Positions 16,179-43,548 are shown, counted from the stretch's first letter. The stretch: DNA of 64,000 nucleotides from an uncultured Bacteroidota bacterium (GCA_963779225.1 CAVZWW010000001.1:542921-606920), one strand, 5' to 3'. Numbers and translations are program-made. The notes: generated by a model not told the origin, from the letters alone.

Positions 16179-16357
16179 TTAAATCATTTCCAACTTCGCG
16201 TCCCTTTTTCCGGGTTACCGTTTCAGCGTAGCCTTTCCAAGAGAGCAACTATGAGTCATTCGGTGAGGTTAGCTGTCTCTGCGTTTACCATGTCTGTATT
16301 GATGGTACACCCACGAATCGCACACGCGTGGAACGTCTTTGCGTGTGCAGGTCCGCG

Positions 16358-17499: not shown

Positions 17500-19377
17500 A
17501 TGTACACTCGCCGATTTGTTTTGATGGTTCTTCTTCTGTCCGTGGCGTGCGGTGCGTTGTTTGCACAGTTCAACCCACGGGCAGACTACGTCTGGGCCCG
17601 CGATATTTCAGTTGCTGCGAGTCCGACGATTACGCTCGATGGTAATCTGAGCGAAGCGGTCTGGGCCAAGGCCGAATCCGTTATGGTCACCTATGGTACC
17701 CTCGATGGCAACCCGGGTAGTGGCTACAAGATCATGAATGGGTCGGGGACGCCCGGGAATGGTGCAAATGCCGTTATGAAGTTCCTGGTGAACAAAACGA
17801 CAAATATGTTGTATTTTTCCGTCAGCGCGAACGACAGCTCTGTCGGCGGCAACGGGTGGGAAAACGCCGACGGTGTCTTAGGCGGTTTCTACGAGCGCGC
17901 CTCCCGTGAGCCCAACCTGGGGATCACACTGCAAAAGGACTTCTTCATTTCGTTCGTCGATTCTTCCGCTCCCGATGCGGGGATGAATCTGAAGGGTGGC
18001 AATCTTCCGGATCGTGGAGTAATCAAAGCGGCCTTGCATGTTAACGGTACAGCGAATGTCGATACCACCGCTGGTGGTGCGCGTGTGGCCGACCAGGGAT
18101 GGGTGCTGGAAATGTCCGTCTCTCTGGACAGCCTCGGGTACAGCGCCAACAGCGCGACGACCGATGAAGTCCAGATGTCGATAAGCATCTGGGATGGAGA
18201 CTGGACCCACGGCGGCGGGACGTCCATTGCCACGAAAAACTGGTGGGGCAACGAGTGGGGCAACAATGGTGGCGGGATCGCAACACGCGTGCTCGTCCGC
18301 AACGATGTCAATGTTAACACAACATCTGTTCCGGAATATGGCTATGACGGCGTTGTTCCGAATGCGGCGAACTTTGCCGATCCCGTCATCGATGGCGATC
18401 TGAAGGATACGGTGTGGAGCAAAGTGTCATCGTTTACCATTCAGTACGGCAATTCTGCCTTGCGTGCCACGTATCCGACTATTGGCAAAGACCGTAGTGG
18501 CAATTTCAAGGCCAAGGGCACGACGGCCTTTGATGCCGGACAGGCAAAGTTCAAGGCGGTCTTCAAAGGTGACATGCTCTATCTCAGCGCCGATGTCGCC
18601 GACAAGTCACTGAACAGCTTTGTCAGCGATGACTTCTTCGATGGCATCCAGGTCAGCATGAGCGTTCCCGAGGATACGCTTTACGACAAGAATGCGCATG
18701 TGATGGCCGCACGACGCTTCGGAGGAGCCATTGATACCTCGGTGAGCGCCGCTCGCGGACTGTGGGATGTGATAGGGGACAGCCTCTTCATCAAGGCCGT
18801 CAAGTATGGGATGAAACTCAAAGCCGGCTCGACCATCAACGACAACACAGATGTGGATGCGGGATATACGGCGGAGATGTCAATCGATCTGTCCAAGCTC
18901 GGCTACGGTGCAGGTCAGACGAACAAAGTCGTCGCGATTGGGGTCAACTATCATGACTATGATATCGCCACCGATACCGTTGCAACCAGGGCCTGGTGGT
19001 TTAGAGAGTGGCCATGGTCGGCTTCGGCTGCATTCCTCTTGCTTGACAACGGAACCTTGGTCACTGGTGTGGAAGACCAGCCGGTAGGAGTTGCCGGAGA
19101 ATTTCGTTTGATGGGGAATTATCCCAATCCGTTCAACCCGTCGACGAAAATCCAGTTCAGGGTGCCGGAGGCCGGAACGGCGAAGCTTCAGATTGTTGAC
19201 ATTCTCGGTCGCATGGTACGGGAAATTGCTCTCCAGGTGGTGGGCGGGACGTACGAGCAGGCATTTGACGCCACGTCTCTGGCCAGCGGAGTGTACTTCT
19301 ACCGCATCGAGTTCGTCTCGGGGCAGACGGGTGCGCACAACCTGTCTGAAACCAGGAGCATGCTGTTGTTGAAGTAG
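17500..19377 (+). CDS. T9SS-secreted protein with two CBM9/DOMON-like carbohydrate-binding repeats
   Basis: Signal peptide MYTRRFVLMVLLLSVACGALFAQ. Two internal repeats of the pattern TLDGNLSEAVWAKAESV / IDGDLKDTVWSKVSSF. C-terminal T9SS sorting domain MGNYPNPFNPSTKIQFRVPEAG…GVYFYRIEF. RBS gagaggtg. Confidence 0.5.
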   Translation: MYTRRFVLMVLLLSVACGALFAQFNPRADYVWARDISVAASPTITLDGNLSEAVWAKAESVMVTYGTLDGNPGSGYKIMNGSGTPGNGANAVMKFLVNKTTNMLYFSVSANDSSVGGNGWENADGVLGGFYERASREPNLGITLQKDFFISFVDSSAPDAGMNLKGGNLPDRGVIKAALHVNGTANVDTTAGGARVADQGWVLEMSVSLDSLGYSANSATTDEVQMSISIWDGDWTHGGGTSIATKNWWGNEWGNNGGGIATRVLVRNDVNVNTTSVPEYGYDGVVPNAANFADPVIDGDLKDTVWSKVSSFTIQYGNSALRATYPTIGKDRSGNFKAKGTTAFDAGQAKFKAVFKGDMLYLSADVADKSLNSFVSDDFFDGIQVSMSVPEDTLYDKNAHVMAARRFGGAIDTSVSAARGLWDVIGDSLFIKAVKYGMKLKAGSTINDNTDVDAGYTAEMSIDLSKLGYGAGQTNKVVAIGVNYHDYDIATDTVATRAWWFREWPWSASAAFLLLDNGTLVTGVEDQPVGVAGEFRLMGNYPNPFNPSTKIQFRVPEAGTAKLQIVDILGRMVREIALQVVGGTYEQAFDATSLASGVYFYRIEFVSGQTGAHNLSETRSMLLLK

Positions 19378-19479
19378 TTGCGGTATCAGCGTCCTGTTCT
19401 TCCGGCTGTTCCTCTCCCGCAGCTACGCCGGGCGGGAGAGGGGCCGGAAGCGGCTCATCATGAAGGTCGTGTGAATGCC

Positions 19480-22134
19480 ATGAACTCCGCCCGATCACTC
19501 GTTCCGTCCTGCCGGCATGTGTGTGCCATGGTCACGGCTCTGGTGATGCTGACTCACACCATTCTCCTTGCGGATACCAAAGGCAAACTCACCGGACGTG
19601 TTATCGATCTGCGGGGACAGCCGGTACTGGGGGCAAATGTCATTGTGGTTGGTACCACAGTTGGTGGGACGGCAAACGATGAAGGGCAATACAACATCAT
19701 CAATGTGCCGGCTGGTGTGTACGATGTACGAACAAGTGCTGTTGGGTATCAGGGGAAGATCGTTCGCAGTGTGCGTATCAACGCCGGACAGACCACCACG
19801 CTGGAGTTCGTCATCAGCGAGAGCGCGATTGAAGCCGGCGAAGTAGTGACAATTGCTGAACGCCCGTTGGTGGATACCCGGCAAACCAGTGCAGTCTCAA
19901 TCCTGAGCAGGGACGATATCGAGGCCCTGCCTGTGCAGACCCTGAACGATATCGTGAATCTCCAGGCCGGCGTTGTGGATGGTCACTTCCGTGGCGGCCG
20001 TGCGGGCGAGGTGCAGTACCAGGTGGATGGAGTGTCCGTGAACAATCCGTACGATAACTCCTCCGTAATTCAACTGGATCGGTCGGTATTGCAGGAAGTA
20101 CAGGTTATTAGCGGAACATTTGATGCGGAGTATGGGCAGGCGATGAGTGGGGTTGTGAATGCCATCCTCCGCAGCGGATCGGAGGAGCAGTTTGAAGCAA
20201 GCGCCGAACTCTATGGTGGAGCGTACGTTACTGACCAGGAAGTGTTCCCGCACACCGCGGTCTCAAGGTCACCGGCACTTCAAAGCCTGACCATGTCGCT
20301 GAGCGGTCCGGCGGGAATTCCCCGCACCTCGTTTCTTCTGAACATCCGCCGTTTCATCGATGATGGGTATCTCTGGGGGCAGCAGACTTTTCTGCCCACG
20401 GATGCGTCCGATTTTGGCACAAAGCTCTTCACGCCGGGCGGCTCCAACGCTGCCGTGTCGATGGCATGGCACAAGGAATGGTCCGGGCAGCTCAAGATTG
20501 CCAATCGCTCACTGACTGATGTACAATTGAGCTATCAGGCGGTTGGTGTACTGAGCGAAGGAAAAGCATTCGCATTCGGGTATCGAATCAATCCGGACGG
20601 GACGCGAACGCACAACAACTGGTCGCTCGTCCACGGCCTTGATTTCACCCATACCCTCTCAGTGAACGCATTCTATACACTCAGTTTCCGTCAGAACTAT
20701 TTCCATTACACTGACTACGTCTTTTCCTCACTTGACGATCCCGGGTACGCGCTCGCGGGTGCTCCCCGCGGCGATCCCAATTATGAAATGGGGGCGATCA
20801 TCCAAGGATACGATCTGGGGAGGTTTGAACAGAAAACCAACGCATTCTTGCTGAAAGGCTCGTTAACGAGTCAGGTGACGAGCCTGCATCTGATGAAGCT
20901 CGGCTTTGAAGTGCAGGCGACGTCTATTCTCTTTGGTGCTCCCGGGACGCTGGCGTCGCAGATCCTCGGACCGACGCAGTCCACTGTGTACGAAGTTGCA
21001 GATACGCTTGCACAGAATATCCGCACATATTATCCGCGGTCCATGGCGCTCTTTATTCAAGACAGAATGGAAGTGGCCGACTTTCTCATCCGTGCGGGCC
21101 TCCGAGCGGAATTCTATGACGCGAATGCTACCGTTCCGAGCGATCTCGAAAATCCGGCAAACACCATCCAGGGTGCACCCACGTCAGTCCAGACGCCAAC
21201 AACGAGGAAGTTTGCGCTCGCACCCCGGCTGGGCATTTCCTACCCGATAGCCGCGACTGGCGCACTCTACTTTTCCTACGGACATTTCTATCAGATGCCC
21301 GGTATGGGCAATCTCTATGCAAATTCCGATTACTACATTCTGCGCAATCTGCAGTCCGGGAGTACGTCATACGGCGTGATGGGGAATCCCGATATCAAGC
21401 CGGAGTTCACCGTACAATATGAATTTGGATTCAAACAACAGTTCGGGCAATTCCTCGGCGTGGATCTGAGCGTCTTCTACAAAGACATCCGGGATCTGCT
21501 CGGTGTGGAATTCATTGACACGTATGCGGATTCACGATATTCCCGGTTTACAAATGTGGATTTCGGATCGGTCTACGGAATTCGCCTTGCGATCGACCAA
21601 CGCTTCACAGAGGCATTCAGCGTCTCGCTCAACTACACGAATCAGAACGCGATGGGGAATGCCAGCGATCCTCATGAGACGGCGAATCGGGCCGCGGCAG
21701 GCGAGGATCCCCGGCCCCGGCAAGTACCCTTCGACTGGGATCAGCGCCACACCCTGAATGTCGCGGCAATAGTTAACGATCACGACAATTTTCTCGCAAC
21801 CTGCATCGTGCGCTTTGGCAGCGGTAGTCCCTACACTCCTTCGGTTGGATCGGGATTCGGGGCACAACTCGAGAAGAACTCCTCTCCGAAGCCGACCTGG
21901 GTGACGGTTGACCTGCGTGTGGAGAAACCCTTTCACATCGGGACAATCACGCTCAACACGTTTCTGCGCGTGTTCAACCTTTTCGACGCACGCTACGCCA
22001 ATGGATTCGTGTTTTCAACAACGGGCAGCGTATTCTATTCCCTGACTTCCGCAGCAGATCGCACAACGCTGAGTGATCCATCGCGCTACACCACACCGCG
22101 ACGGATTGAACTCGGACTCGGAGTGAGAATCTGA
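19480..22134 (+). CDS. TonB-dependent outer-membrane receptor with N-terminal carboxypeptidase-regulatory-like domain
   Basis: Signal peptide; GRVIDLRGQPVLGANVIVVGTTVGGTANDEGQYNIINVPAGVYDV (CarbopepD_reg); plug region VVTIAERPLVDTRQTSAVSILSRDDIEALPVQTLNDIVNLQAGV; long beta-barrel. No SusD-like gene follows. Confidence 0.75.
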   Translation: MNSARSLVPSCRHVCAMVTALVMLTHTILLADTKGKLTGRVIDLRGQPVLGANVIVVGTTVGGTANDEGQYNIINVPAGVYDVRTSAVGYQGKIVRSVRINAGQTTTLEFVISESAIEAGEVVTIAERPLVDTRQTSAVSILSRDDIEALPVQTLNDIVNLQAGVVDGHFRGGRAGEVQYQVDGVSVNNPYDNSSVIQLDRSVLQEVQVISGTFDAEYGQAMSGVVNAILRSGSEEQFEASAELYGGAYVTDQEVFPHTAVSRSPALQSLTMSLSGPAGIPRTSFLLNIRRFIDDGYLWGQQTFLPTDASDFGTKLFTPGGSNAAVSMAWHKEWSGQLKIANRSLTDVQLSYQAVGVLSEGKAFAFGYRINPDGTRTHNNWSLVHGLDFTHTLSVNAFYTLSFRQNYFHYTDYVFSSLDDPGYALAGAPRGDPNYEMGAIIQGYDLGRFEQKTNAFLLKGSLTSQVTSLHLMKLGFEVQATSILFGAPGTLASQILGPTQSTVYEVADTLAQNIRTYYPRSMALFIQDRMEVADFLIRAGLRAEFYDANATVPSDLENPANTIQGAPTSVQTPTTRKFALAPRLGISYPIAATGALYFSYGHFYQMPGMGNLYANSDYYILRNLQSGSTSYGVMGNPDIKPEFTVQYEFGFKQQFGQFLGVDLSVFYKDIRDLLGVEFIDTYADSRYSRFTNVDFGSVYGIRLAIDQRFTEAFSVSLNYTNQNAMGNASDPHETANRAAAGEDPRPRQVPFDWDQRHTLNVAAIVNDHDNFLATCIVRFGSGSPYTPSVGSGFGAQLEKNSSPKPTWVTVDLRVEKPFHIGTITLNTFLRVFNLFDARYANGFVFSTTGSVFYSLTSAADRTTLSDPSRYTTPRRIELGLGVRI

Positions 22135-22145
22135 AAGGTGTATGT

Positions 22146-25100
22146 ATGAAGAGGCATTACCTCGTCGCTGCATTTCTCATTTTCATATCGGCGTCTCCGG
22201 CGTGGACGCAGACACCGCTCCAGCCGGTTGTCCCGAAAAGTCAACGGGGACGCAACGATGCCGAACGCTCGGGGACACATGATGCAGGGAATATCCGGAC
22301 GGTGTTCTACAACTACGGGATGGTGGGGGACTATCCCGCGGATCCCATCAATGTCGATCTGTCGATTTTTCATTCAGCGGAAGTCCCCAAGGGATCCGGG
22401 GAAAACTATACGGATGGTATTACGCCGTTCGTGCTGGCGAAGATTAAGGATGTGCATGGAACGGATAACTATATCATGGAAACGGGGTTTCGTGAACGTC
22501 AGGAACAGAGTCCTCTCACATCCAAGATTATGCGTTTCGAACCGCGCCCCGGTTATCTCCAGAGCGACCCGACAATCAATGTCGGCAGATCAATCGCTAT
22601 GAGTCATGACTCCCGGACGTGGCCGCCCGCCTGGCCGGACAAAGCAAATGATCCGGACGACCCGGGCTGGGCGGGCAGCTGGAATGGATATTTCGGGAAG
22701 CGTCCCAATGCTGACCAGGAAAGCTACTCTGTGATGGACGATGATTTTTATGATAAATGGGACTACTATCCGGACAACCGGGATCAGACACGCCGGGGTC
22801 TCGGGCTTCGTGTGGAAGTCCGCGGATTTCAGTGGGCCAACCCGCAATCGACCAACGTCATCTTCTGGCACTATGACATCACTAACGAAGCAACGACAGA
22901 CTACCCTGACAATATCATCTTCGGTCTCTATATGGATTCCGGCGTTGGCGGTTCGGCATTTTCGTGCGACGGGGTTGCGGAATCGGATGATGACAACGCC
23001 TATTTTGATCATTCAACAGGGCTGAATCTGGTATACACGTGGGACAAGTTCGGGCACGGTGTTGATCTCCGGAGCAATTGCTCGGCAACAGGCTATCTCG
23101 GATATGCGTATATGGAAACGCCCGGCAATCCCTACAATGGCATCGATGATGATGGTGATGGAATTACCGACGAACGGCGGGATAGTGGCCCCGGACAGCT
23201 GGTTGTAGGGCAGGACAACATCCGCATCTACGTTCTCGCGCACTATGATCTTGCAAAATTCGAATCGTTCTACGGGAAACTGGATACCAGGCCGGCATTC
23301 AAAGCCGGAAGATGGTGGACCGGCGACGAAAACCAGAATTGGGTTGCCGACTATGATGATCTCGGTGCTGATGGTGTGCAAAACACGTATGACACCGGCG
23401 AAGGGGATGGCATCCCGACAGCAGGAGAACCGGATTTCGATCAGACGGACAAAGATGAATCAGATCAGATCGGATTGACCGCGTTCAAGATGAATCGCAT
23501 CAAAGGTCCGTCAAAGGCTGACCCGGTGGATGATATTGTATTCTTCGGCTTGTGGCCGCCCGCCCTTTACCAGCAGTTCACCTCGCCCGTTCCTTCGTCA
23601 CGGTTTGACTCCGCCGTCGTCCTGAACTACAACATCGCCTTCTTGTTTGCATCCGGGACCTTCAAGTTGCCGGCGGGGGCGCATGAGAGATTCAGTCTTG
23701 CCCTGGCCTACGGGGCCGACTTGAATGAGCTCCGGGAACGGGTACGTACAGTTCAGCAAATCTACAATGCCAACTACCAGTTTGCTGTGCCTCCTCCGGC
23801 TCCTCTGGTCAAAGCCGAGTCGGGCGACGGTTTTGTACGGCTTTCGTGGAGCGATTATTCCGAGCGGGCAAGTGACCCCGTCACTCATGAAAACGACTTT
23901 GAAGGATACAAGATTTATCGTTCCACCGATGTTGACTTCCGCGATCCGAAAACAATCTCCAATGCCCGCGGGACCGGACCCTTTGGCAACGGTAAACCCA
24001 TGGCGCAGTTCGATCTGAAGAATGGCATACAAGGGTATTCGAAGCAGCTGATAGACGGCGTCGCGTATTATCTTGGCGACGATACCAACCTCATGCATGC
24101 CTACATCGATACCACCGTGAAGAACGGACAGGAATACTTCTACGCAGTCTGTTCGTTCGATCACGGTTCGGATTCTCTGGGATTCTTCCCGTCGGAGAAT
24201 GCCATTGCGGTCTCACGCACACTGCGGGGTGGCATCATCCTTCCGGTTAATGTTGTGGACACAAGGCCCGAACCGAACGTGCCGGGATTCGTGCCAGCGA
24301 CGGCATCGAACATATACCACAGGGCGGGTGGGGGGAGCGGTTCTGTTACATTGAATATTGTGGATTCCCGCCAGGTTCCTGATGGCCAGACGTATCTTCT
24401 CCGTTTCACGACCGATACACCGAGCCAGATCCATGCAGTGAGATATGCAATGGTGGATAGTACAACGGGGAAAGAAGTCTTTGGTGCGGGAACTGACTTC
24501 CATGGCGAGGGGCGCGGACCCGTTGGTCTTGGAATGCTGCCTGTCGTCGCCACGACGGATGTCACGATGCCGGATACCACGTACACGGGATTTACTGCCA
24601 CCTCCGTCACGAACATGCGATTTGCTGTGGCCAACAAAGACGCCGACTCAATCAATGTGCTCCGGCCCGGATACCCGAATGATTTCACGATTACCTTTTC
24701 GAGCGGCGTTCTTGACACGAGTCTTCTTTCCATTGTCAGCGATGCCATTCCTGTGAAATTCCGGATCGAAGCCTCGACGGCAAGCGGTCCGATGCGGTTG
24801 CGGTTGTATTTCCATGATGCCAATGACGACAGCACCATGAGTACACTCGGCGACTTCATCGATGTTGTTACGTATGTCCCAGGGAGCACGCGTCCGCGCG
24901 TGACGTGGCGTATAACGGTGGATACCGCCGGTCAAGCAGCCCGCGGCAACATTGTGCCTCCCACAACGGGAGATATCTACTCCGTGCGCCTCCTCATCCC
25001 GTACGGTAGTGAGGATGTGTTTACCTTCCGGACAACGGCACAGACGGTCTCCGGCGACAAAGGGCGGCAGCAGTATGGCTCCGGCCCGTACGTCGTGCCA

Positions 25101-25388
25101 AATCCGTATGCCGGAGCGGCGAGTTTCGAGGCGGAACGGTTCGCTGTGACCGGCCGCGGGGAGCGTCGTCTTGAATTCCGCAATCTGCCGGTTGGCGCCA
25201 GCGTTCGAATATTTACGGTGCGTGGCGATCTGGTGCAGTCACTTCATCAAGACGGATCCACGGTGGGTATGGTTCCCTGGAATCTGAGGACCAAAGACAA
25301 CCTGGACGTTGCGCCGGGTCTCTACGTCTATCATGTCGAGGCGCCGGGATTCGACTCCTTCGTTGGCAAGTTTGCGATCATCAAATAG
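22146..25388 (+). CDS. Large secreted protein with Asp-rich Ca-binding (thrombospondin-type-3-like) repeats, probable T9SS cargo
   Basis: Signal peptide MKRHYLVAAFLIFISASPAWTQ; DDDGDGITDERRD and DYDDLGADGVQNTYDTGEGDGIPTAGEPDFDQTDKDESDQ motifs; C-terminal …GLYVYHVEAPGFDSFVGKFAIIK resembles a T9SS CTD. Confidence 0.4.
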   Translation: MKRHYLVAAFLIFISASPAWTQTPLQPVVPKSQRGRNDAERSGTHDAGNIRTVFYNYGMVGDYPADPINVDLSIFHSAEVPKGSGENYTDGITPFVLAKIKDVHGTDNYIMETGFRERQEQSPLTSKIMRFEPRPGYLQSDPTINVGRSIAMSHDSRTWPPAWPDKANDPDDPGWAGSWNGYFGKRPNADQESYSVMDDDFYDKWDYYPDNRDQTRRGLGLRVEVRGFQWANPQSTNVIFWHYDITNEATTDYPDNIIFGLYMDSGVGGSAFSCDGVAESDDDNAYFDHSTGLNLVYTWDKFGHGVDLRSNCSATGYLGYAYMETPGNPYNGIDDDGDGITDERRDSGPGQLVVGQDNIRIYVLAHYDLAKFESFYGKLDTRPAFKAGRWWTGDENQNWVADYDDLGADGVQNTYDTGEGDGIPTAGEPDFDQTDKDESDQIGLTAFKMNRIKGPSKADPVDDIVFFGLWPPALYQQFTSPVPSSRFDSAVVLNYNIAFLFASGTFKLPAGAHERFSLALAYGADLNELRERVRTVQQIYNANYQFAVPPPAPLVKAESGDGFVRLSWSDYSERASDPVTHENDFEGYKIYRSTDVDFRDPKTISNARGTGPFGNGKPMAQFDLKNGIQGYSKQLIDGVAYYLGDDTNLMHAYIDTTVKNGQEYFYAVCSFDHGSDSLGFFPSENAIAVSRTLRGGIILPVNVVDTRPEPNVPGFVPATASNIYHRAGGGSGSVTLNIVDSRQVPDGQTYLLRFTTDTPSQIHAVRYAMVDSTTGKEVFGAGTDFHGEGRGPVGLGMLPVVATTDVTMPDTTYTGFTATSVTNMRFAVANKDADSINVLRPGYPNDFTITFSSGVLDTSLLSIVSDAIPVKFRIEASTASGPMRLRLYFHDANDDSTMSTLGDFIDVVTYVPGSTRPRVTWRITVDTAGQAARGNIVPPTTGDIYSVRLLIPYGSEDVFTFRTTAQTVSGDKGRQQYGSGPYVVPNPYAGAASFEAERFAVTGRGERRLEFRNLPVGASVRIFTVRGDLVQSLHQDGSTVGMVPWNLRTKDNLDVAPGLYVYHVEAPGFDSFVGKFAIIK

Positions 25389-25403
25389 CCGGGGACGTTT
25401 TCC

Positions 25404-26459: not shown

Positions 26460-26472
26460 GAAGCAGGACGTA

Positions 26473-31346: not shown

Positions 31347-31352
31347 TCCTTC

Positions 31353-32744: not shown

Positions 32745-35700
32745 GTTGCCACTCCTCGACGGCCCGGCGGTTCTCCATCTGCCAGTTGTTCCTGCTGTGC
32801 GCGATGCACCTCCTCCTGCCCTCTGCGTACTCCCAGCCCCGGCTTCTCGACGACTTTGAGACCCTGACCGGCTGGAAAGAAATCGTCTCCGAAGGGGCCA
32901 AACTGCATCTGATACAGGCAGGGGGGACCGCGGGCCGTTCGATGGGTATGGTCTTCGATCTGAGGGGGGTGTCCGGATACGTTATTGCGCAGAAGGAGTT
33001 TACGCTCGATCTCCCCACGAACTACCAGTTCACGTTTGACATGCGAGCGGAAGCTCCCGTCAACAACTTCGAATTCAAGTTGATCGACGATCAGGAAAAC
33101 GTGTTCTGGATCAAAAAGATGAGTTTCACCTACCCCGGCGAGTGGACGCGGCAACGTATCAAGAAACGGCATCTGACGTTCGCGTGGGGTCCCACCCGCG
33201 GCGGCGAAATCCGCAAGGTGCGCAAGATCGAGTTCGTCGTGTCGGTCAGCACGGGCGGAGCGGGCACGGTCTATCTGGACAATTTCCGTTTTGAACCGAT
33301 CGATGAACATGCGGGAAAAACCGCACGTGCCGAAGTTGAGGGTTCTTCAAATGCGTCCGGCCGGCTCCCCTCGATAGACGCCCAGGCCTCACTCCTCTCC
33401 GATTGGCACAGCTCAGGCGGACGCGAGCAAGAATGGCTGATCGTACGGTTCCACCAGCTCAAGGAAGTGGGGGGACTGGTGATTGATTGGGACAGCGTCG
33501 ATTTTGCCACGCATTATCAGGTCCTTCTTTCGGATGACAGCGTCGCATGGACAAGAGCGTACGCCGTGACAAACGGGAACGGAGGACGGGACTATGTCCC
33601 ATTGACGGAAGGGGAGGGGCGGTTTCTGAAACTCCTTCTTTTAAAGAGCGGAGGAAACCGAAGATTCGGAATCCGCCGGATGACCTTCAAACCCCCACAA
33701 TTCTCCGGATCACCGAACGAGTTCTTTCGTGCAGTGGCCGCGGATGCACCAGCGGGTCACTTTCCAAAGTTCTTTCAGAACCAGCAGTCGTACTGGACCG
33801 TCATCGGGGTGAACGGCGATAGCCAGGAAGCGCTGATGAACGAACAGGGGCAGATTGAAGTGGACAAACTCCTCTTCTCGTTGGAGCCTTTTCTGTACGT
33901 TGACAATCACCTGGTGACCTGGAATGATGTTGCGACAAGCCCGGCCCTTCTGGACGGCTATCTGCCGATTCCCTCGGTGACCTGGCGCTATAAGGACGAA
34001 TGGGTGCTCACGATCGAGGCGGTTGCCGGAGGCGTGGCGGGGAATTCGCTCCTGGGTATCCGGTATACCGTGCACCGGCTGAAGTCCGGAGATCCTGCAA
34101 AGCTGTTTGTTGCAGTGTGCCCCTTCCAGGTGAATCCCCCATGGCAGTTCCTGAATGTCGAAGGCGGGGCGACACGGATAGAAAGCATCGCGTACCATGA
34201 AGGATTTGTGCGCGTGGATGGCCGGGAGATCATCCCGATGACCCCGCCCTCACGCTTCGGGGCGGCGGAATTCGATCAGGGACATATTACGGAGTATCTG
34301 GCGCAGGGGACTGTTCCGCCGGAGCAAAATATCCATGATCATACGGGCTACGCCTCTGCTGCACTGGAATACGATCTGTCTCTGTCGGCGGGCGAAGTGA
34401 AGGAAATCTGCCTTGCTGTACCGTTCCACGGATGGCATGGAAGCCCTACACCCAACATGCAACAGTACGGCGACCGGATCTACTTCAACATGATGCTTTC
34501 ACAGACGGTGAATTTCTGGCGCGGCAAACTGGACAGGATCCGGATCACGCTCCCCCCATCCGCCCAGGATGTGGTGAATACGTTGAAGTCCAACCTCGCA
34601 TATATTCTCATCAACCGCGATGGTCCGGGCATACAGCCGGGCTCGCGCAACTATGAGCGTTCCTGGATACGCGACGGGTCACTGACCTGCTCGGCTCTGT
34701 TGCGCACGGGGAACATGGCCGAGGTGCGGGAATTTATCGACTGGTATGCAAAGGGGCAGTTCCCGAACGGCAAAATCCCGTGTGTCATTGATGCACGGGG
34801 GCCTGATGCGGTACCTGAACACGATAGCCATGGGGAATTCATCTATGCGGTGCTGCAGTACTTCCTGTTTACGAAAGACACCCTCTGGCTCCGCGGTAAG
34901 TTTGATAATATTGTGAAGACCGTCCGGTACATCCAGGCTTTGCGTGCAGAACGGAAGACGGATCTCTACAAAAGCGGCACACCACAGCAGCGGGCATTGT
35001 ACGGACTGCTGCCTGAATCGATCAGTCACGAAGGGTACTCGGATGTTCCCCGTCACTCGTACTGGGATGACTTTTTCGCCCTGCGCGGCCTCAAGGATGC
35101 CACCACCATCGCCCGGGTCCTTCGAGAAAAGGAATATGCGGCGGAGTTCGCCACTGAGCGGGACGATTTCCGCAAGGATCTGTACGCTTCCATGCGTCTG
35201 GCCATGAAGAACACCGGGGTAGACTACATACCCGGTTGCGCGGAGCTGGGAGATTTTGATGCCACATCCACAACCATCGGCGTGGTGCCCGGGGGAGAAC
35301 TCGGAAATATCCCCGAACCGCAGCTGCACAATACGTTTGACAGGTATTATCGCTATTTTGTCGGGAGGAAGACGAAAGAAGACGTCGTGAACTACACCCC
35401 CTATGAAACGCGTGTGATCGGGACGTTTGTCCATCTTGGTCAAAAACAGCGTGCGGAGGAAGCCCTTGCCTTCTTCATGAACGATCGGCGTCCGCCGGCC
35501 TGGAATCACTGGGCCGAAGTCGTCTGGCGCGATCCGTTGACCCCGAAATTCATCGGCGACATGCCGCACACATGGGTGGGATCCGATTTCATGCGGTCGG
35601 TGTTCAGCATGTTCATCTACGAAAGGGCACGGGATAGTGCTGTGGTTCTCGGGGCGGGGATCCCCGACCGGTGGGTGAATGATCCGGCCGGCGTGACCGT

Positions 35701-35935
35701 AAGAGATCTGCCGACCTATGACGGCAGCGTGAGCTATTCGATAAAGAGAAGCGGTGCGTCGGTACAGGTGGCTATTTCCGGCACCGTTCCGGTTCCGCGT
35801 ACAAAGCTTGTGCTTACATCCCCGCTGACGCAGGCGCCGCGGTCGGTCCGGCTGAATGGCAAGCGTATTCCGTCTCCGCAGACGAGGGAGATCGTGCTCA
35901 CCGCACTTCCCGCAAAAGTCGAGTTCAGGTATTAA
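32741..35935 (+). CDS. Large secreted glycoside-hydrolase-like protein (N-terminal carbohydrate-binding/discoidin-like module plus (alpha/alpha)6-like C-terminal region)
   Basis: GTG start in GTGA overlap with the upstream stop; signal peptide …ICQLFLLCAMHLLLPSAYSQ; about 1065 aa; C-terminal segment DGSLTCSALLRTGNMAEVREFIDWYAKGQFPNGKIPCVID reminiscent of six-hairpin glycosidases. Family not assignable by eye. Confidence 0.35.
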   Translation: MSCHSSTARRFSICQLFLLCAMHLLLPSAYSQPRLLDDFETLTGWKEIVSEGAKLHLIQAGGTAGRSMGMVFDLRGVSGYVIAQKEFTLDLPTNYQFTFDMRAEAPVNNFEFKLIDDQENVFWIKKMSFTYPGEWTRQRIKKRHLTFAWGPTRGGEIRKVRKIEFVVSVSTGGAGTVYLDNFRFEPIDEHAGKTARAEVEGSSNASGRLPSIDAQASLLSDWHSSGGREQEWLIVRFHQLKEVGGLVIDWDSVDFATHYQVLLSDDSVAWTRAYAVTNGNGGRDYVPLTEGEGRFLKLLLLKSGGNRRFGIRRMTFKPPQFSGSPNEFFRAVAADAPAGHFPKFFQNQQSYWTVIGVNGDSQEALMNEQGQIEVDKLLFSLEPFLYVDNHLVTWNDVATSPALLDGYLPIPSVTWRYKDEWVLTIEAVAGGVAGNSLLGIRYTVHRLKSGDPAKLFVAVCPFQVNPPWQFLNVEGGATRIESIAYHEGFVRVDGREIIPMTPPSRFGAAEFDQGHITEYLAQGTVPPEQNIHDHTGYASAALEYDLSLSAGEVKEICLAVPFHGWHGSPTPNMQQYGDRIYFNMMLSQTVNFWRGKLDRIRITLPPSAQDVVNTLKSNLAYILINRDGPGIQPGSRNYERSWIRDGSLTCSALLRTGNMAEVREFIDWYAKGQFPNGKIPCVIDARGPDAVPEHDSHGEFIYAVLQYFLFTKDTLWLRGKFDNIVKTVRYIQALRAERKTDLYKSGTPQQRALYGLLPESISHEGYSDVPRHSYWDDFFALRGLKDATTIARVLREKEYAAEFATERDDFRKDLYASMRLAMKNTGVDYIPGCAELGDFDATSTTIGVVPGGELGNIPEPQLHNTFDRYYRYFVGRKTKEDVVNYTPYETRVIGTFVHLGQKQRAEEALAFFMNDRRPPAWNHWAEVVWRDPLTPKFIGDMPHTWVGSDFMRSVFSMFIYERARDSAVVLGAGIPDRWVNDPAGVTVRDLPTYDGSVSYSIKRSGASVQVAISGTVPVPRTKLVLTSPLTQAPRSVRLNGKRIPSPQTREIVLTALPAKVEFRY

Positions 35936-38637
35936 TGGATTCCCCGCTGATCGACAATTCGCCGTTGCAGGCGTCGCCAAAGCCGGGGCAACCCAGACTC
36001 CAGATCCGGCTTAACGGACAATGGGATGCGCAGCCGGCCCCGGATTCGCTGATCCCACAGGAATGGCATCACACGGTACAGGTGCCCGGACTGGTTGACG
36101 GTGCCGAGCCGGCGTATGAAGTGCAGGCGTACGATTTCCACTGGTACCGCACATCGTTCGATTTGCCGCCGGAGAGCATCCGCCCGACCGCGCGGTTGGT
36201 GCTCGAGCAGGCGATGTTCGGCACGGAGGTGTGGCTGAACGGGCGCCGCCTGGGAGGTGATATCGCCTGCTACACATCTCAGGTCTACGATATTCCGGAC
36301 CGCGTTCTTCGTGACCGGGAGAATGTCCTGGTCGTCTGCGTGGGAAGCAGGCGGACACTTTCGAGTGAAGGCGCGGTCGGCAAAGACCAGGAACGGGAGA
36401 CGTTCATTCCGGGTATCTGGGGCGACGTCTCTGTGATTCTTGCCGGTACCGTACACATCACGCATGTTCAGGTTGTGCCACACATTGAGGGTGCATCAGC
36501 GGAGGTGCGTGTGACGGTGCGGAATCTGCTTGCGGCTGAACGTGACGTTTGCATCAGCACGCGGATCTCCGAGAAGCGTTCCGGCATGCATGCGAGCGGG
36601 GAAATCGAAATGCAGGCGACGGTCTCGCCGGGGGGAGAAACCGTCATCACGTTCCATCATGGAATTCGGGACATGAAGCTCTGGTCACCGGAGTCTCCGT
36701 TTCTCTACGAAGTGATTACCGGTGTGCGCGTGGAAGCCGAGCCGGAAGATCTGGTGCGAACCACGTTCGGAATGCGTTCATTTACTATCCAGAACGGTCA
36801 TTTCCTTCTGAACGGACAGCGCATATTCCTGCGCGGCGGGAATATCGCCTTTCACCGTTTTCTGTCGGATGCGGAACGGGGCACACTCCCCTGGGATCCG
36901 GCATGGATCAAACGCGTGCTGATCGATATCCCCAAATCCCACAACTTCAACTTCTTCCGGAATCATCTCGGACAGATGTACAACAGGTGGTACGACATCG
37001 CCGATGAATACGGCATGCTGCTGCAGAACGAGTGGCAGTTCTGGACGGCCACCGGAACGCGCGATCAGATTCTCCGGGAATTCGGCCGCTGGGTGGCCGA
37101 CAATGTGAATCATCCGAGTATCGTTATCTGGGATGCCCTGAATGAGTCTTCCGATGCAGTCGTTCAGCAGGAAGTTGTTCCGGCGATGAAGAGGCTGGAT
37201 CCCACCCGCCCATGGGAGTCGGTGGATTTCGTGGAAGACCATCCCTATATTTATTCGCTCGGTCCGGTGTTGAATGACCGGAAGTTCGGGTTTGCCAGAT
37301 CGCTGGAAGAAATCGCGCACTCGCCGGAACCCACGGTGGTGAATGAATTTCTCTGGTGGTGGCTCGACCGCGACGGCAACCCGGCTCCGCTTACACACGA
37401 AGTAGTGGAACGGTGGCTGGGGCGCGAATACACGCAGGAGGAGTTGCAGGAGCACCAGTCTTTCCTTGCGCGCGAGCTTGTGGAGCTGTTCCGGCGGATG
37501 CGGGTGGATGCCGTGCAGCCGTTTGTGTATCTGAGCAACAGTGCCGGACCGACGGGACACTGGTTCTCGGGTCCCATTGCTGAACTGCGCCCCAAACCGA
37601 TCCTGAGTGCGCTGAAGGAGAGTTTCGCGCCATTCGGTCTGAGCATAGAACTGTGGGACAGGCATTTTTCTCCCGGCGAGCACCGGACCATGCAGCTTTT
37701 CGTTTTCAACGATACTCCCGTGCCGGCAAAGGGAACCATCTGCTACGGTGTGCAGGGCGACGGCGGGCGCTGGATCATGTCCCGGACAATGGAGGTTGCC
37801 GTCGATGCGTCGGGGGTGAGGGGCGTTCCTGTCGTTGTGGGGCTTCCCGGTGCAGACGGGCGGTACCATATCCGGGCGGAGCTCATGGTTCCCGGCGAGG
37901 AACGGCCTGTTGCGGTCAGTCAGAAGCCCGCGTTTGTCGTCTCCGCAACCGCCCCCCCTCCGGCTCTGCTTCAGAGCGGAGTTGTCGTGGCCGACGGGAC
38001 GGGTGAAGTGAGTTCCTTCCTGGGTCAGGCGGGAATCCCGAGCACCGGGCTGGAGCAGGTTGATCTGAGCCGTACGTGGCCGGTGATCGTTGTGGAAGAA
38101 ATGATCCGGTCCGCAGCGTACCGGTCGAAAATGACCGATCTGAGTCTGATGGTTGCCGCGGGTGGAACACTGGTCCTGCTCGAACCGGAGAAGGGGGTCA
38201 CCGGGGCGGTCACCATTCCGCTCCTTACCGATGTGGATCTGTACATCCGTCGGCGCGCGGATACGGACAGGGGAGGATATGATTCCTATGTCTTTGCGGA
38301 CGATCACGGTCACCCCCTTTGGCGTGGGATCACGCGGGACCATCTCAAGATGTTCAACGGGGCATTCGGGGGGGAAGTGGTATCGCAGCACGACGTCATT
38401 CCCGGTCGCGCGGTGCATGTTCTGGCGCGGTGTGGTTTGAAGTTGAAGGTCGTCGTCGTAATGGAGATGCAGTATGGCAAAGGCAGGATAATCGTGTCGC
38501 GGATCCAGACCCGGGGCCGCCTGGTTGGCGGTGTGGATCCCGCTCCCCTGTATGCGCGTCGAAAGGATCCTGTCGTCCAGCGGTATTTCTTCAATCTGCT
38601 TTCGTGGGCTGCGGTGCCGCGGGGAGGGAAGCCTTGA
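35935..38637 (+). CDS. GH2-family glycoside hydrolase (beta-mannosidase/beta-galactosidase-like), cytoplasmic
   Basis: GH2 N-terminal sugar-binding jelly-roll (YDFHWYRTSFDLPP…LVLEQAMFGTEVWLNGRRLG…YDIPDRVLRDRENVLVVCV), TIM-barrel entry FTIQNGHFLLNGQRIFLRGGN, acid/base-like VIWDALNESS. No signal peptide. Confidence 0.6.
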   Translation: MDSPLIDNSPLQASPKPGQPRLQIRLNGQWDAQPAPDSLIPQEWHHTVQVPGLVDGAEPAYEVQAYDFHWYRTSFDLPPESIRPTARLVLEQAMFGTEVWLNGRRLGGDIACYTSQVYDIPDRVLRDRENVLVVCVGSRRTLSSEGAVGKDQERETFIPGIWGDVSVILAGTVHITHVQVVPHIEGASAEVRVTVRNLLAAERDVCISTRISEKRSGMHASGEIEMQATVSPGGETVITFHHGIRDMKLWSPESPFLYEVITGVRVEAEPEDLVRTTFGMRSFTIQNGHFLLNGQRIFLRGGNIAFHRFLSDAERGTLPWDPAWIKRVLIDIPKSHNFNFFRNHLGQMYNRWYDIADEYGMLLQNEWQFWTATGTRDQILREFGRWVADNVNHPSIVIWDALNESSDAVVQQEVVPAMKRLDPTRPWESVDFVEDHPYIYSLGPVLNDRKFGFARSLEEIAHSPEPTVVNEFLWWWLDRDGNPAPLTHEVVERWLGREYTQEELQEHQSFLARELVELFRRMRVDAVQPFVYLSNSAGPTGHWFSGPIAELRPKPILSALKESFAPFGLSIELWDRHFSPGEHRTMQLFVFNDTPVPAKGTICYGVQGDGGRWIMSRTMEVAVDASGVRGVPVVVGLPGADGRYHIRAELMVPGEERPVAVSQKPAFVVSATAPPPALLQSGVVVADGTGEVSSFLGQAGIPSTGLEQVDLSRTWPVIVVEEMIRSAAYRSKMTDLSLMVAAGGTLVLLEPEKGVTGAVTIPLLTDVDLYIRRRADTDRGGYDSYVFADDHGHPLWRGITRDHLKMFNGAFGGEVVSQHDVIPGRAVHVLARCGLKLKVVVVMEMQYGKGRIIVSRIQTRGRLVGGVDPAPLYARRKDPVVQRYFFNLLSWAAVPRGGKP

Positions 38638-39926
38638 TCAATCGATTGGACACCATTGCGCCGGGCGTGCGCCGTGTGTACATCGGACTCCTGGTCATTC
38701 TGGCCGGCGGTTGCGGTGGAGCGGGGCGCGAGCCGGTGGAAATCCGTTTCTGGGCCATGGGTGCGGAAGGGGAGAACGTCCAGCAACTGCTTCCGGAATT
38801 TGAGCGCAGAAATCCTGAAATCCGTGTCCGTTTGCAGATCATCCCGTGGACAGCAGCACATGAAAAGCTGCTGACCGCCTATGCGGGGAACGCCACTCCG
38901 GATGTCTGTCAGCTCGGGAACACCTGGATTCCTGAGTTCATCGTCCTCAACGCTCTTGAACCGCTCGATCAGCGGCTGCGTTCTTCGGCGGGCATCACGG
39001 ATTCCAGCTATTTTCCTGGTATCCTGGAGACCAACATCGTCGAAGGCAGACAGTACGGGGTTCCGTGGTACGTGGATACCCGCGTGCTGTTCTACAGGAA
39101 GGACATCCTCGCACGGGCCGGTTATTCCCATCCACCCCGGACATGGGAAGAGTGGCATGATGTCTGTCAACGCATTGTGGAAACCGGCCCTGCGACGGAG
39201 CATTACGCAATGTTACTGCCCACCACAGAGTGGATACCGCCGGTGATTCTCGGCATGCAATGCGGATCGCGATTTCTACGCGACGGTGATACGTACGGCG
39301 ATTTCTCGGGGCCGGCTTTTTCGCGCGCGTTCACATTCTATATCGACTTCTTCAGCCGGCACTACGCGCCCGTCGGGCTCATGGCGGTCACCAATATTTA
39401 CCAGAGTTTTGCCGAAGGGTACTTTGCGATGTATATCACGGGTCCCTGGAACATCGGCGAGTTCCGTCGCCGCCTGCCGCCGGCATTGCAGGATGCCTGG
39501 ACGACTGCGCCGCTCCCGGGGCCGGATATCCACACGCCCGGGATGTCCCTTGCGGGAGGATCCAGTCTTGTGATGTTCTCCGCCTCGACGAAGAAAAATG
39601 AGGTGTGGAAGCTGATCGAATATCTCTCCGAACCGGAACAACAGGTAGTGTTTTACCGGATCACGGGTGACCTTCCCGCGCGCACCGAGGCGTGGCGGGA
39701 CTCGTCACTCACGGAGAACCCGTATGCCCGTGCCTTTCTTACACAACTCGCGCACGTGGGACCCACACCGAAGATTCCCCAGTGGGAGCAAATTGCGATG
39801 AAGGTGCAGGACTATGCGGAGATTGCCGCCCGCAAAACCAAAACCGTGCAGCAGAGTCTCGAAGCACTCGACCGCGAAGTGGACCTCATTCTCGAAAAAC
39901 GCCGCTGGATGATCAATGCGCGCTGA
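38634..39926 (+). CDS. ABC transporter sugar-binding lipoprotein (family 1 extracellular solute-binding protein)
   Basis: Probable TTG start overlapping the GH2 stop; lipobox LLVILAGGCGG; SBP_bac_1-like sequence EIRFWAMGAEGENVQQLLPEFERRNPEIRVRLQIIPWTAAHEKLLTAYAGNATPDVCQLGNTWIPEF. The track ORF starts at 38319. Confidence 0.7.
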   Translation: MINRLDTIAPGVRRVYIGLLVILAGGCGGAGREPVEIRFWAMGAEGENVQQLLPEFERRNPEIRVRLQIIPWTAAHEKLLTAYAGNATPDVCQLGNTWIPEFIVLNALEPLDQRLRSSAGITDSSYFPGILETNIVEGRQYGVPWYVDTRVLFYRKDILARAGYSHPPRTWEEWHDVCQRIVETGPATEHYAMLLPTTEWIPPVILGMQCGSRFLRDGDTYGDFSGPAFSRAFTFYIDFFSRHYAPVGLMAVTNIYQSFAEGYFAMYITGPWNIGEFRRRLPPALQDAWTTAPLPGPDIHTPGMSLAGGSSLVMFSASTKKNEVWKLIEYLSEPEQQVVFYRITGDLPARTEAWRDSSLTENPYARAFLTQLAHVGPTPKIPQWEQIAMKVQDYAEIAARKTKTVQQSLEALDREVDLILEKRRWMINAR

Positions 39927-40800
39927 ACACTCACGGGCGGCGCTGGTGGTATTCCTCGGACCGGCATTGGCGGCCATCGGCGTCTTCTTTTTCCTTCCCG
40001 TTCTCGCTGCCTTCATGATGAGTTTCACCGACTTTGACATCTATTCGCTCGGCAACCTGGAGTTCGTACGCTTCGTCGGTCTCCGGAATTACCTGCAGCT
40101 CTTTCAGGACCCCCTGTTCTGGAAAGCTCTGAAGAATACGCTCTATTTTCTCCTTGTCGGCGGGCCGCTGTCCATCGGTGTCTCGCTGGGCGCCGCCCTT
40201 CTCCTGCAGTCGCGGTTGGTGCGTTTTCAGAGCTTCTTCCGGTTTGCCTACTTTGCGCCTGTTGTCACCACTCTGGTTGCCGTGGCGGTCGTCTGGCGCT
40301 ATATTTACCACCCCCGGTTCGGCGTCCTGAATTTCCTCCTCGGACTGGTCGGGATCAACCCCGTCGACTGGCTCGGGGATCCGGCGTGGGCAATGCCGGC
40401 GATTATTCTGATGGCTGTCTGGAAGAACTTCGGTTACAATATGATCATCTTCATTGCGGGTTTGCAGAACATCTCCCAGTCGCTGTACGAAGCGGCGAGC
40501 ATTGACGGGGCCGGGCCCGTCCAACGCTTTGTGACCATCACCCTGCCCTTGCTTGCCCCGACGACGCTCTTCATCAGCATCATCACCCTGATAGGCTATT
40601 TTCAGCTCTTCGCCGAGCCGTACATTATGACGCAGGGCGGACCCTTGAACAGTACGCTCAGTCTTGTGCTTCTGATGTACCAGCAGGGGTTTCGGTGGTG
40701 GAACATGGGCTATTCGGCGGCGCTGGCGTTTGTGCTGTTTGCGTTTATTCTTGCGGCTTCGGTCATCCAGACGCGTCTGCAACGAAAGAGAGGAGAATAA
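39916..40800 (+). CDS. ABC sugar transporter permease (MalF/UgpA-type)
   Basis: Six TM segments and the EAA-like loop of binding-protein-dependent permeases (…YEAASIDGAGPVQRFVTITLPLLAP…). Confidence 0.8.
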   Translation: MRAEHSRAALVVFLGPALAAIGVFFFLPVLAAFMMSFTDFDIYSLGNLEFVRFVGLRNYLQLFQDPLFWKALKNTLYFLLVGGPLSIGVSLGAALLLQSRLVRFQSFFRFAYFAPVVTTLVAVAVVWRYIYHPRFGVLNFLLGLVGINPVDWLGDPAWAMPAIILMAVWKNFGYNMIIFIAGLQNISQSLYEAASIDGAGPVQRFVTITLPLLAPTTLFISIITLIGYFQLFAEPYIMTQGGPLNSTLSLVLLMYQQGFRWWNMGYSAALAFVLFAFILAASVIQTRLQRKRGE

Positions 40801-40803
40801 CGC

Positions 40804-41622
40804 ATGCGGCGGTTGCAACAAAGCGGGTTGATGCTGGTGGTCCTGATGCTGGCGTGCGCGACGTTCGCCCCGCTGGTCTGGATGGTATCCGCGTCATTTA
40901 TGCCTTCCGGTCAGGCCGCCACATTTCCGCCACCGTTCTTTCCGCGTCAGATGACTCTCGATCAGTATGTGAATCTCTTCACACGCCTCCATCTGGGGCG
41001 CTCACTCTTCAACAGCGTTGTCCTCTCGGTGGCCGTGACAATGGTGTCGCTGCTGGTCAATTCCATGGCCGGCTACGCCTTTGCCAAGTACCGGTTTCGC
41101 GGACGTGCACCGCTCTTCAAACTGCTCATTGCCTCGATGATCATTCCGGCGCAGGTCACCATGCTTCCACTGTTTCTGTTGCTGAACAAGATGGGATTGA
41201 TCAACACCTACTTCGGGGTCATCATTCCAGGTATGGCAAGCATATTCGGCATCTTCCTGATCCGGCAATTTGCCCTGTCAATCCCGGACAGTCTCCTTGA
41301 AGCGGCCCGGATGGACGGGGCGGGCGATTTCCGCATTTACTGGTCGTTGATCCTGCCCCTCTGTAAACCGATTCTCATCACGCTGGCGATATTCACGTTC
41401 ATGGGTACGTGGAACGATTTCCTCTGGCCTCTGATCGTCATGACAGATGAGAGCATGTACACACTCCCGGTGGCGCTCGCCAGTCTCTCGGGAGAGCACA
41501 TGCAGGACACCGAGCTGATGATGGCGGGCTCGGTGATGACCATTCTACCGGTTCTTCTCGTTTTCGCTGCGGTGCAGAAGTACTACATTGCTGGGATCAT
41601 GGCAGGGAGTGTGAAGGAGTAG
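40804..41622 (+). CDS. ABC sugar transporter permease (MalG/UgpE-type)
   Basis: TM segments plus the EAA motif LEAARMDGAGDFRIYWSLILPLCKP. Confidence 0.8.
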   Translation: MRRLQQSGLMLVVLMLACATFAPLVWMVSASFMPSGQAATFPPPFFPRQMTLDQYVNLFTRLHLGRSLFNSVVLSVAVTMVSLLVNSMAGYAFAKYRFRGRAPLFKLLIASMIIPAQVTMLPLFLLLNKMGLINTYFGVIIPGMASIFGIFLIRQFALSIPDSLLEAARMDGAGDFRIYWSLILPLCKPILITLAIFTFMGTWNDFLWPLIVMTDESMYTLPVALASLSGEHMQDTELMMAGSVMTILPVLLVFAAVQKYYIAGIMAGSVKE

Positions 41623-43472: not shown

Positions 43473-43548
43473 ACAGGGAATTCCGCGTAGCCAGAGCCCG
43501 GTCGAAAACCCTCCGGACCCCGCTCTCTTTAAGAAGGAAAGGAATGTG

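Follow-up and report, generated by a model that had tools for sequence, protein, structure and literature searches.

In a 64 kb window of DNA from an uncultured Bacteroidota bacterium (GCA_963779225.1, CAVZWW010000001.1:542921-606920), we analyzed a locus of 12 co-directional genes at 17500-41622, which are preceded by a LacI gene, a sigma-70 promoter, and two operators (16084-17374). The results suggested that the locus most likely captures, imports, and breaks down beta-1,2-glucans in an Ignavibacteria-like bacterium, and there is a high probability that it is an operon for scavenging beta-1,2-glucans, linear or cyclic, made by other bacteria. The substrate is indicated by three independent lines of evidence, i.e. 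the homology of two products to GH144 enzymes, the Lin1841-type binding protein, and the relatives of the GH94 enzyme. The evidence consists of the gene content, the homology to characterized proteins, the predicted localization (from N-termini and C-terminal tails), and the conserved synteny. A map of the open reading frames (ORFs) and family scans recovered, in place and on the + strand, every gene listed in a preliminary description of the window made from the sequence, and the beta-1,2-glucan substrate proposed there was borne out by the relatives of these proteins.

Two of the genes encode homologues of GH144 endo-beta-1,2-glucanases. The product of 28869-31346 (+) matched PF10091 (E 6e-73) and carries a signal peptide and a Por_Secre_tail match (E 3.5e-7), as expected for a protein exported through a type IX secretion system (T9SS). 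The product of 31353-32744 (+) matched PF10091 with E 2e-80, has a signal peptide and no T9SS tail, and is predicted to be periplasmic. XcSGL (8xul, XCC2207), which is reported to hydrolyse beta-1,2-glucans (PMC12102758), matched the periplasmic protein with 450 bits and the exported one with 336 bits, and the latter also matched CpSGL with 187 bits. Both proteins matched this founding Chitinophaga enzyme as well as BDI_3064. The two paralogs are 42% identical over 436 aa, and the exported one has an N-terminal extension of about 300 aa with a weak CBM30 match. The preliminary description had labeled these six-hairpin paralogs DUF3131, a label that has to be replaced by PF10091 (GH144); the alternative mentioned there, that they might belong to unrelated families, did not apply, as both matched the same GH144 family.

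At the 3' end of the locus, 38667-39926 (+; the start is at 38646 or 38667) encodes a lipoprotein solute-binding protein of the sophoro-oligosaccharide type, with an SBP_bac_1 match (E 2e-41) and a lipobox-like LAGGC motif near the N-terminus. Its closest solved relatives were a Xanthomonas protein (3uor, 404 bits) and Lin1841 (5ysb, 247 bits), and the next match scored 122 bits. Two permeases of the ATP-binding cassette (ABC) type follow at 39916-40800 and 40804-41622 (+), each with a BPD_transp_1 match, and they are 62-70% identical to those of three related loci (L007, L013, and L085). Neither the locus nor the large ORFs scanned in the window yielded a gene for an ABC ATPase. The binding protein and the two permeases of the preliminary description could be confirmed, and the importer is not 'Gram-positive-style', since the closest solved binding protein is from Xanthomonas.

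The gene at 26473-28872 (+) produces a 799-aa GH94 protein with the catalytic and supersandwich domains and no signal peptide, which is predicted to be cytoplasmic. Its best solved match was the GH94 domain of a cyclic glucan synthase (Cgs), with 477 bits and 35.6% identity in a comparison that covered 585 residues of Cgs. The locus might instead serve the use of another beta-glucan, such as laminarin, cellodextrins, or mixed-linkage glucan; its GH94 would then be a phosphorylase of cellobiose or laminaribiose, and the cellobiose phosphorylase of C. thermocellum was indeed nearly as close as Cgs (456 bits). Because the difference in score was small, a qualitative character, the segment following the catalytic DWND motif, was examined. 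In cellobiose phosphorylases, an insertion after DWND closes the acceptor site. The spacer comprises 11 residues in both the window GH94 and Cgs versus 26 in the C. thermocellum enzyme, so that the window protein is devoid of the insertion and groups with the Cgs domains. The solved laminaribiose phosphorylase was a distant match of only 64 bits. Other beta-glucans would also fit the CBM11-like and CBM32-like modules on the 1064-aa protein of the locus, which are of a kind found on beta-glucanases, and the GH16, GH9, GH5, and GH3 genes that are flanked by sister outer-membrane cassettes; the locus itself, however, contains no GH5, GH9, GH16, GH17, or GH3 gene but two GH144 genes and a Lin1841-type binding protein, and we regard a different beta-glucan as a very improbable substrate.

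To place the GH94 protein, we used a scan of 185,579 species genomes, which gave 80 relatives. Fifteen of these show 46-58% identity and, at about 800 aa, consist of a stand-alone GH94; eight of the 15 have a GH144 gene within the fetched stretch, as do all the GH94 relatives reached via homologues of the 1080-aa protein described below (L081-L083, L085, and L086). Among the other 65 relatives, which are 36-42% identical, ORFs of approximately 2900 aa predominate, and nearly all of the 65 have the short post-DWND segment. These relatives with approximately 40% identity were at first taken as cellobiose phosphorylases, an assignment that was dropped on the basis of ORF and loop lengths; their size and their closeness to the Cgs domain from Agrobacterium suggest that they are cyclic glucan synthases. 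Since the next-nearest relatives are of the Cgs type, the nearest relatives beyond the stand-alone clade are expected to act on beta-1,2-glucan chains. Judged from its sequence, the GH94 protein belongs with the cyclic-glucan-synthase-type clade and not with the cellobiose or chitobiose phosphorylase clade.

This placement also bears on the possibility, raised in the preliminary description, that a chitobiose-specific GH94 would make the locus one for the utilization of chitin or chitobiose. Chitobiose phosphorylases were among the GH94 matches (407 and 378 bits), but they scored below both Cgs and the cellobiose phosphorylases. No GH18, GH19, GH20, or NagA/NagB genes are present in the locus, and the score of the binding protein against the NgcE model was 21.5 bits versus a cut-off of 400. 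Chitin was therefore rejected as the substrate, and the probability that we leave to it is negligible.

From this evidence we infer not only the substrate but also the regulation, the roles of the 1064-aa, GH2, and 1080-aa proteins, and the order of the following steps. At the cell surface, the T9SS-exported GH144 would cut the polymer, and the fragments would be captured by two T9SS proteins, the CBM9-like one and the 1080-aa one, beside the TonB-dependent receptor, with the PorV/PorQ-family barrel acting as a dedicated shuttle or anchor of the 1080-aa protein. The receptor would bring sophoro-oligosaccharides into the periplasm, where the second GH144 would shorten them and the GH15-like 1064-aa enzyme could perform trimming, ring-opening, or debranching. 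The lipoprotein binding protein and the two permeases, presumably energized by an ATPase encoded elsewhere, would move the oligosaccharides to the cytoplasm. There, the Cgs-type GH94 would phosphorolyse them to glucose 1-phosphate, and the GH2 protein may handle the residual short product, either by sophorose hydrolysis or by glucose transfer like the GH35 enzyme of Ignavibacterium album.

The 1064-aa putative glycosidase (32741-35935, +) is composed of a CBM11-like domain, a CBM32/discoidin domain, a beta-supersandwich, an (alpha/alpha)6 barrel, and a C-terminal beta-sandwich. The AlphaFold model (mean confidence, pLDDT, 86.8) showed two N-terminal beta-sandwiches followed by the beta-supersandwich, the barrel, and the C-terminal beta-sandwich, and the combination of beta-supersandwich and (alpha/alpha)6 barrel in this predicted structure is the one seen in bacterial GH15 glucoamylase or glucodextranase. 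The N-terminal domains display sequence kinship to CBM11 and CBM32. Membership of GH15 was not detected by sequence, as there was no Pfam GH15 match and the NCBIfam GH15 models gave 22-23 bits versus cut-offs of 820, and a family profile searched against solved structures matched CBM domains only. More than 2500 homologues exist, which are at best named 'discoidin domain-containing protein'. The motifs ERSWIRDG, SHEGYW, and NHWAEV are invariant and resemble what we take to be the corresponding GH15 regions. With a signal peptide and no T9SS tail, the protein is probably periplasmic. A speculative role would be the opening of Xanthomonas-type cyclic glucans at their alpha-1,6 closure; exo-beta-1,2 activity would be just as conceivable.

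The gene at 35935-38637 (+) encodes a divergent GH2-family glycosidase with no signal peptide, predicted to be cytoplasmic. All three Pfam GH2 domains were found (PF02837, 30.5 vs 28; PF00703, 52.9 vs 23; PF02836, 45.2 vs 21), and the best solved relatives scored only about 75 bits. Residues N403-E404 and N470-E471 are invariant in 25 homologues; none of the alignments to solved GH2 enzymes extends to the nucleophile region. The two pairs could correspond to the acid/base and the nucleophile of clan GH-A enzymes, with E404 and E471 as candidate catalytic glutamates. The GH2 and 1064-aa genes are also adjacent in two related loci, L087 and L088, and many GH2 homologues were found on contigs with lengths equal to those of contigs that carry 1064-aa homologues.

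Several observations weigh against the beta-1,2-glucan pathway or parts of it. The GH94, GH2, 1064-aa, and 1080-aa proteins are without an assayed close homologue, and for GH94 the C. thermocellum cellobiose phosphorylase follows close behind Cgs with 31.9% identity. The closest structural relatives of the 1064-aa protein act on alpha-glucosides, which is a poor fit to a pure beta-1,2 substrate. Pfam scans of the locus found no GH3 or GH1 beta-glucosidase for sophorose; for this reason the GH2 protein, as the only other cytoplasmic glycosidase, is the candidate for sophorose handling. GH3 is present in the related loci L085 and L087, and GH1 in L084. Finally, the role of the 1080-aa protein, the N-terminal half of which has no usable model, is a guess from context, and its link to the PorV-like barrel is suggested by adjacency only.

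From the receptor gene to the end of the locus, the intergenic gaps are at most about 30 nt or the genes overlap, which argues for an operon-like unit and not a chance arrangement. A LacI-family transcription regulator with Pfam LacI HTH and Peripla_BP_1/3/4 matches is encoded at 16358-17374 (+), and LacI homologues also accompany related loci. Located in the intergenic region 5' of this gene, the sequence TTGACA-17 nt-TATAAT at 16084-16112 (+) agrees with the sigma-70-type promoter at 12 of 12 consensus positions and is a predicted promoter by this consensus match. Directly 3' of it, two palindromes, TGTAAACGGTTACA (16112-16125) and TGTAAGCGTTTACA (16165-16178), both on the + strand, constitute predicted LacI-type operators. 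They were spotted by reading the sequence, after an automatic inverted-repeat finder had missed them, and were then confirmed by a pattern search, in which they were the sole two matches in the 64 kb at two or fewer mismatches (0.02 expected by chance). When 88 loci were compared, five of them (L005, L013, L081, L084, and L085) had the motif TGTAANCGNTTACA a short distance upstream of either the LacI gene or the gene that opens the locus, and it was found in none of the other 83. The five are from an I. album metagenome-assembled genome (MAG), the L081 genome, and MAGs labeled Chlorobiota, Eisenbacteria, and Calditrichaeota, the taxon labels here and below being those given by the MAG depositors. 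With the LacI gene, the promoter, and the conserved operators in front, the functional unit would start near 16084; the preliminary description had the genes of 17500-41622 right and placed the start too far downstream. The operon would thus be repressed by LacI through the candidate operators.

The control region is of importance for another reading, according to which the cell uses the locus to turn over or modify its own beta-1,2-glucans, periplasmic or cyclic, instead of feeding on an external glucan. Such a role would be consistent with the fact that GH94 domains of the same clade work inside cyclic glucan synthases and with the predicted periplasmic location of one GH144 and of the 1064-aa enzyme. 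However, no synthase gene (GT84/Cgs) is present in the window, the surface GH144, the TonB-dependent receptor, and the ABC importer point to uptake from outside, and a LacI-type regulator with operators is usually a mark of a catabolic operon. It is thus very improbable that the cell's own glucan is the substrate, and scavenging of external beta-1,2-glucan is the reading that we prefer.

The outer-membrane part of the locus begins with 17500-19377 (+), the product of which carries the signal peptide MYTRRFVLMVLLLSVACGALFAQ and a Por_Secre_tail match (E 3.5e-9) and is a T9SS-exported surface protein, possibly glycan-binding. The CBM9_1 match was borderline (25.9 bits versus a cut-off of 23.4), and no solved relative was found by sequence. 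In most of the related cassettes, a T9SS-tailed gene likewise lies upstream of the receptor. The TonB-dependent receptor itself (19480-22134, +) has CarboxypepD_reg, Plug, and TonB_dep_Rec_b-barrel domains. It is not of the SusC/RagA type, as it gave 50 bits versus a cut-off of 368 with the model TIGR04056, and this match was restricted to the N-terminal domain (residues 70-192). No product of the locus matched a SusD family in Pfam scans. Together with the three locus products that carry T9SS tails, the ABC import, and the cytoplasmic GH94, these results agree with the earlier designation of the locus as a non-canonical polysaccharide utilization locus (PUL).

The gene following the receptor (22146-25388, +) encodes a secreted 1080-aa protein with a T9SS-type C-terminal domain (tail motifs PNPY...GLY...GKFAIIK), which is an obligate neighbour of this receptor clade. 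No Pfam domain and no solved relative by sequence were found for it; its tail fits the Pfam models of neither type A nor type B, and among the NCBIfam models there was only a weak match to a PorZ tail (E 3.8e-4). More than 3699 homologues exist, with 59-85% identity across phyla in the sampled set. Conservation is highest in residues 1-550, where DxDxDG-like motifs are abundant. The AlphaFold model (33 sequences) was poor at these residues and good for the beta-sandwiches of the C-terminal half, in which Fn3-like and beta-sandwich domains are predicted, with the T9SS-motif segment at the end. Foldseek matches for this model were disregarded, because they were generic Fn3/Ig hits with TM-scores of 0.06-0.09 by query and 0.05-0.22 by target. 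Comparison of the 1080-aa protein with the CBM9-like one ruled out that the two are paralogs.

The next gene, 25404-26459 (+), encodes an outer-membrane barrel of the PorV/PorQ family (NF033709, 179.7 bits versus a cut-off of 90). It is neither PorV nor PorQ itself, as the respective equivalog models gave 58.9 versus 250 and 75.7 versus 220, but a paralog of these proteins.

To examine how far this arrangement extends, relatives of the N-terminal domain of the 1080-aa protein were collected by a library search, which gave 729 clusters at 50% identity, many of them only 35-45% identical; Pfam scans of these relatives found nothing for the domain. A metagenome scan queried with an alignment of divergent members then gave 80 loci (L089-L168) with a GC content of 33-63%, in which the family members share 28-38% identity with the window protein. 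In each of the 68 loci where the sequence reached far enough, the 1080-aa family gene has a homologue of the receptor directly upstream, with a median of 66 nt between the alignments. On the downstream side, 70 loci had sufficient sequence, and in 68 of them a PorV/PorQ-family homologue follows directly (median gap, 88 nt). GH94 was found in only two of the 80 metagenomic loci and the GH144 core in only one. Among 81 flanking ORFs that were scanned, there were 31 with a T9SS tail, six GH3, four GH16, two GH9, two GH5, and two GH2, together with five CBM9, eight Laminin_G_3, and seven sodium:solute symporter matches; LacI and GntR regulators also occur. In L117 (9887-16146), the receptor and the PorV-like gene are separated by a tandem pair from the 1080-aa family, each member being 1043 aa long.

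Thus, since the triplet recurs beside other glycosidases and GH94 and GH144 are rare there, it appears to be a general module of glycan loci, with the beta-1,2-glucan locus as one instance. The triplet of receptor, 1080-aa protein, and PorV-like barrel, usually after a T9SS-tailed protein, looks like a general SusD-free glycan-uptake cassette. Full-text literature searches found no description of it, which is not proof of absence. In Bacteroidota, PorV deals with proteins that have type A tails, cargo of type B needs cognate adjacent PorP/SprF barrels that set its final location (PMC9143113, PMC12618676), and PorQ holds PorZ (PMC10947112). If the window cassette worked in a similar way, the 1080-aa protein would be shuttled to the cell surface, or anchored there, next to the receptor by the PorV/PorQ paralog, and the 1080-aa and CBM9-like proteins would do the capture work that SusD and the surface glycan-binding lipoproteins do in Bacteroidia. 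The pairs formed by type B C-terminal domains and PorP/SprF and by PorZ and PorQ resemble the present one in that a T9SS-tailed protein is encoded beside a dedicated outer-membrane barrel. The window differs in that its barrel is of the PorV/PorQ family and not PorP/SprF, in that the cargo tail fits neither of the two Pfam models, and in that the putative pair sits behind a TonB-dependent receptor in nutrient loci.

A still wider proposal, which we put forward tentatively and consider possible but rather doubtful, is that the cassette is an undescribed and widespread alternative to SusC/SusD, in which T9SS proteins of a new fold are held at the receptor by their own PorV-family barrel and serve glycan capture in lineages of the Fibrobacteres-Chlorobi-Bacteroidetes group outside Bacteroidia, with subfamilies for each glycan, and that the 1064-aa and GH2 proteins represent new activities, possibly new families, of beta-1,2-glucan metabolism. 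If this were true, the T9SS PorV paralogs would gain a role in nutrient uptake, and the cassette may explain polysaccharide capture by many of the SusD-less relatives of Bacteroidia in soils, sediments, and the ocean.

The overall architecture and its beta-1,2-glucan link are already published, and the architecture is the usual one in this lineage. Kobayashi et al. (2022; PMC8861115) described the homologous SGL cluster of I. album, IALB_1177-IALB_1187, and speculated on a pathway from the outside to the cytoplasm, noting that transport by the receptor was without evidence and giving several genes no predicted function. Like the window locus, the I. album cluster contains two GH144 genes and a stand-alone GH94, which was described as homologous to the C-terminal domain of Cgs; for uptake, it encodes a TonB-dependent transporter as well as an ABC transporter with a Lin1841-like binding protein. 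It differs by its GH35 beta-1,2-glucosyltransferase (IaSGT), the window having the GH15-like 1064-aa protein and the divergent GH2 instead. The Ignavibacteriaceae loci L003 and L005 share the LacI regulator, GH94, the T9SS protein, the receptor, the 1080-aa homologue, the PorV-like barrel, and GH144 with the window, although GH94 follows the outer-membrane cassette in the window and precedes it in L003.

The preliminary description had drawn a parallel with Listeria. The Listeria innocua cluster lin1839-lin1843 (SOGP, a GH3 beta-glucosidase, and the Lin1841 ABC system) resembles the window locus in its homologous binding protein and in the cytoplasmic phosphorolysis of sophoro-oligosaccharides by a GH94 enzyme, but not in the type of that enzyme. 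The Listeria GH94 is of the monomeric SOGP type of about 1100 aa, as against 799 aa in the window; SOGP has an extra N-terminal domain (PMC5309861), and the Listeria/Lachnoclostridium type (LpSOGP, 5h3z) was not among the GH94 sequence matches at E <= 1e-10. The Listeria system, moreover, has no outer-membrane stage and no GH144, and uses GH3 for sophorose. Xanthomonas provides the closest solved relatives of both the periplasmic GH144 and the binding protein, but T9SS components are not found there. A receptor without SusD combined with an inner-membrane transporter is the proteobacterial pattern. The SusC/SusD PULs of Bacteroidia are alike in being co-regulated and in comprising surface capture, surface endo-enzymes, a TonB-dependent importer, and periplasmic trimming. 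Unlike these, the window locus has no SusD and a receptor other than SusC/RagA, T9SS tails instead of surface lipoproteins, a PorV/PorQ-family barrel, an ABC-type inner-membrane step, and LacI instead of hybrid two-component systems (HTCS) or extracytoplasmic function (ECF) sigma factors.

Beta-1,2-glucans are factors in symbiosis, virulence, and osmoprotection of many Proteobacteria, and the enzymes degrading them have been found only since 2014, mostly by mining similar clusters. The synteny ties three conserved proteins to beta-1,2-glucan catabolism, namely the stand-alone Cgs-type GH94, the GH15-like periplasmic enzyme, and the cytoplasmic GH2. The catabolic logic is that of another member of the published cluster type with different accessory enzymes, and the SusD-free, T9SS/PorV-linked cassette is the part most surprising to a specialist.

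Three loci, L081, L087, and L088, show the complete gene order of the window locus; the last of these (GCA_016707525.1, labeled Ignavibacteriae) also shares the flanking PMT_2 and PALP genes, so that conservation reaches past the operon. A core set of the T9SS protein, the receptor, the 1080-aa homologue, the PorV-like barrel, GH94, and GH144 recurs in MAGs labeled KSB1, Eisenbacteria, Calditrichaeota, Chlorobiota, Neomarinimicrobiota, and Bacteroidetes. In L084 (labeled Eisenbacteria; 8-3883, -), a 1291-aa GH94 and a GH1 replace the 799-aa GH94, and from this locus the phosphorylase module appears to be exchangeable between loci. In L082/L083 (labeled KSB1), small TumE-family gene pairs and an isolated ORF similar to ribosomal protein L18 lie between the 1080-aa homologue and the PorV-like gene.

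The window contained no rRNA, tRNA, or Rfam matches, and the probable lineage was read from the labels of syntenic MAGs only (Ignavibacteriae or Bacteroidota). Directly upstream of the sugar locus, 10130-16047 (+) carries an AddAB-like pair of adjacent large genes. One product, of 1027 aa, combines a UvrD-like helicase and a PD-(D/E)XK nuclease domain, and the other, of 945 aa, is again a PD-(D/E)XK protein. On the opposite strand, the locus is flanked by genes for a PMT_2-family glycosyltransferase and a pyridoxal phosphate-dependent enzyme (PALP) at 41744-44979 (-). A cluster at 46719-50488 encodes multi-4Fe-4S proteins and two DUF362 proteins, and a related Fer4 protein is found upstream of the syntenic L081. 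The product of 54417-56291 (+) is an unusual fusion, in which a class II fumarase/aspartase-type lyase (Lyase_1 and FumaraseC_C) has an N-terminal cyclic-nucleotide-binding domain. At 56337-63370, there are two large M14 carboxypeptidase-like proteins and another T9SS-tailed protein, which shows that T9SS cargo is frequent in this genome.

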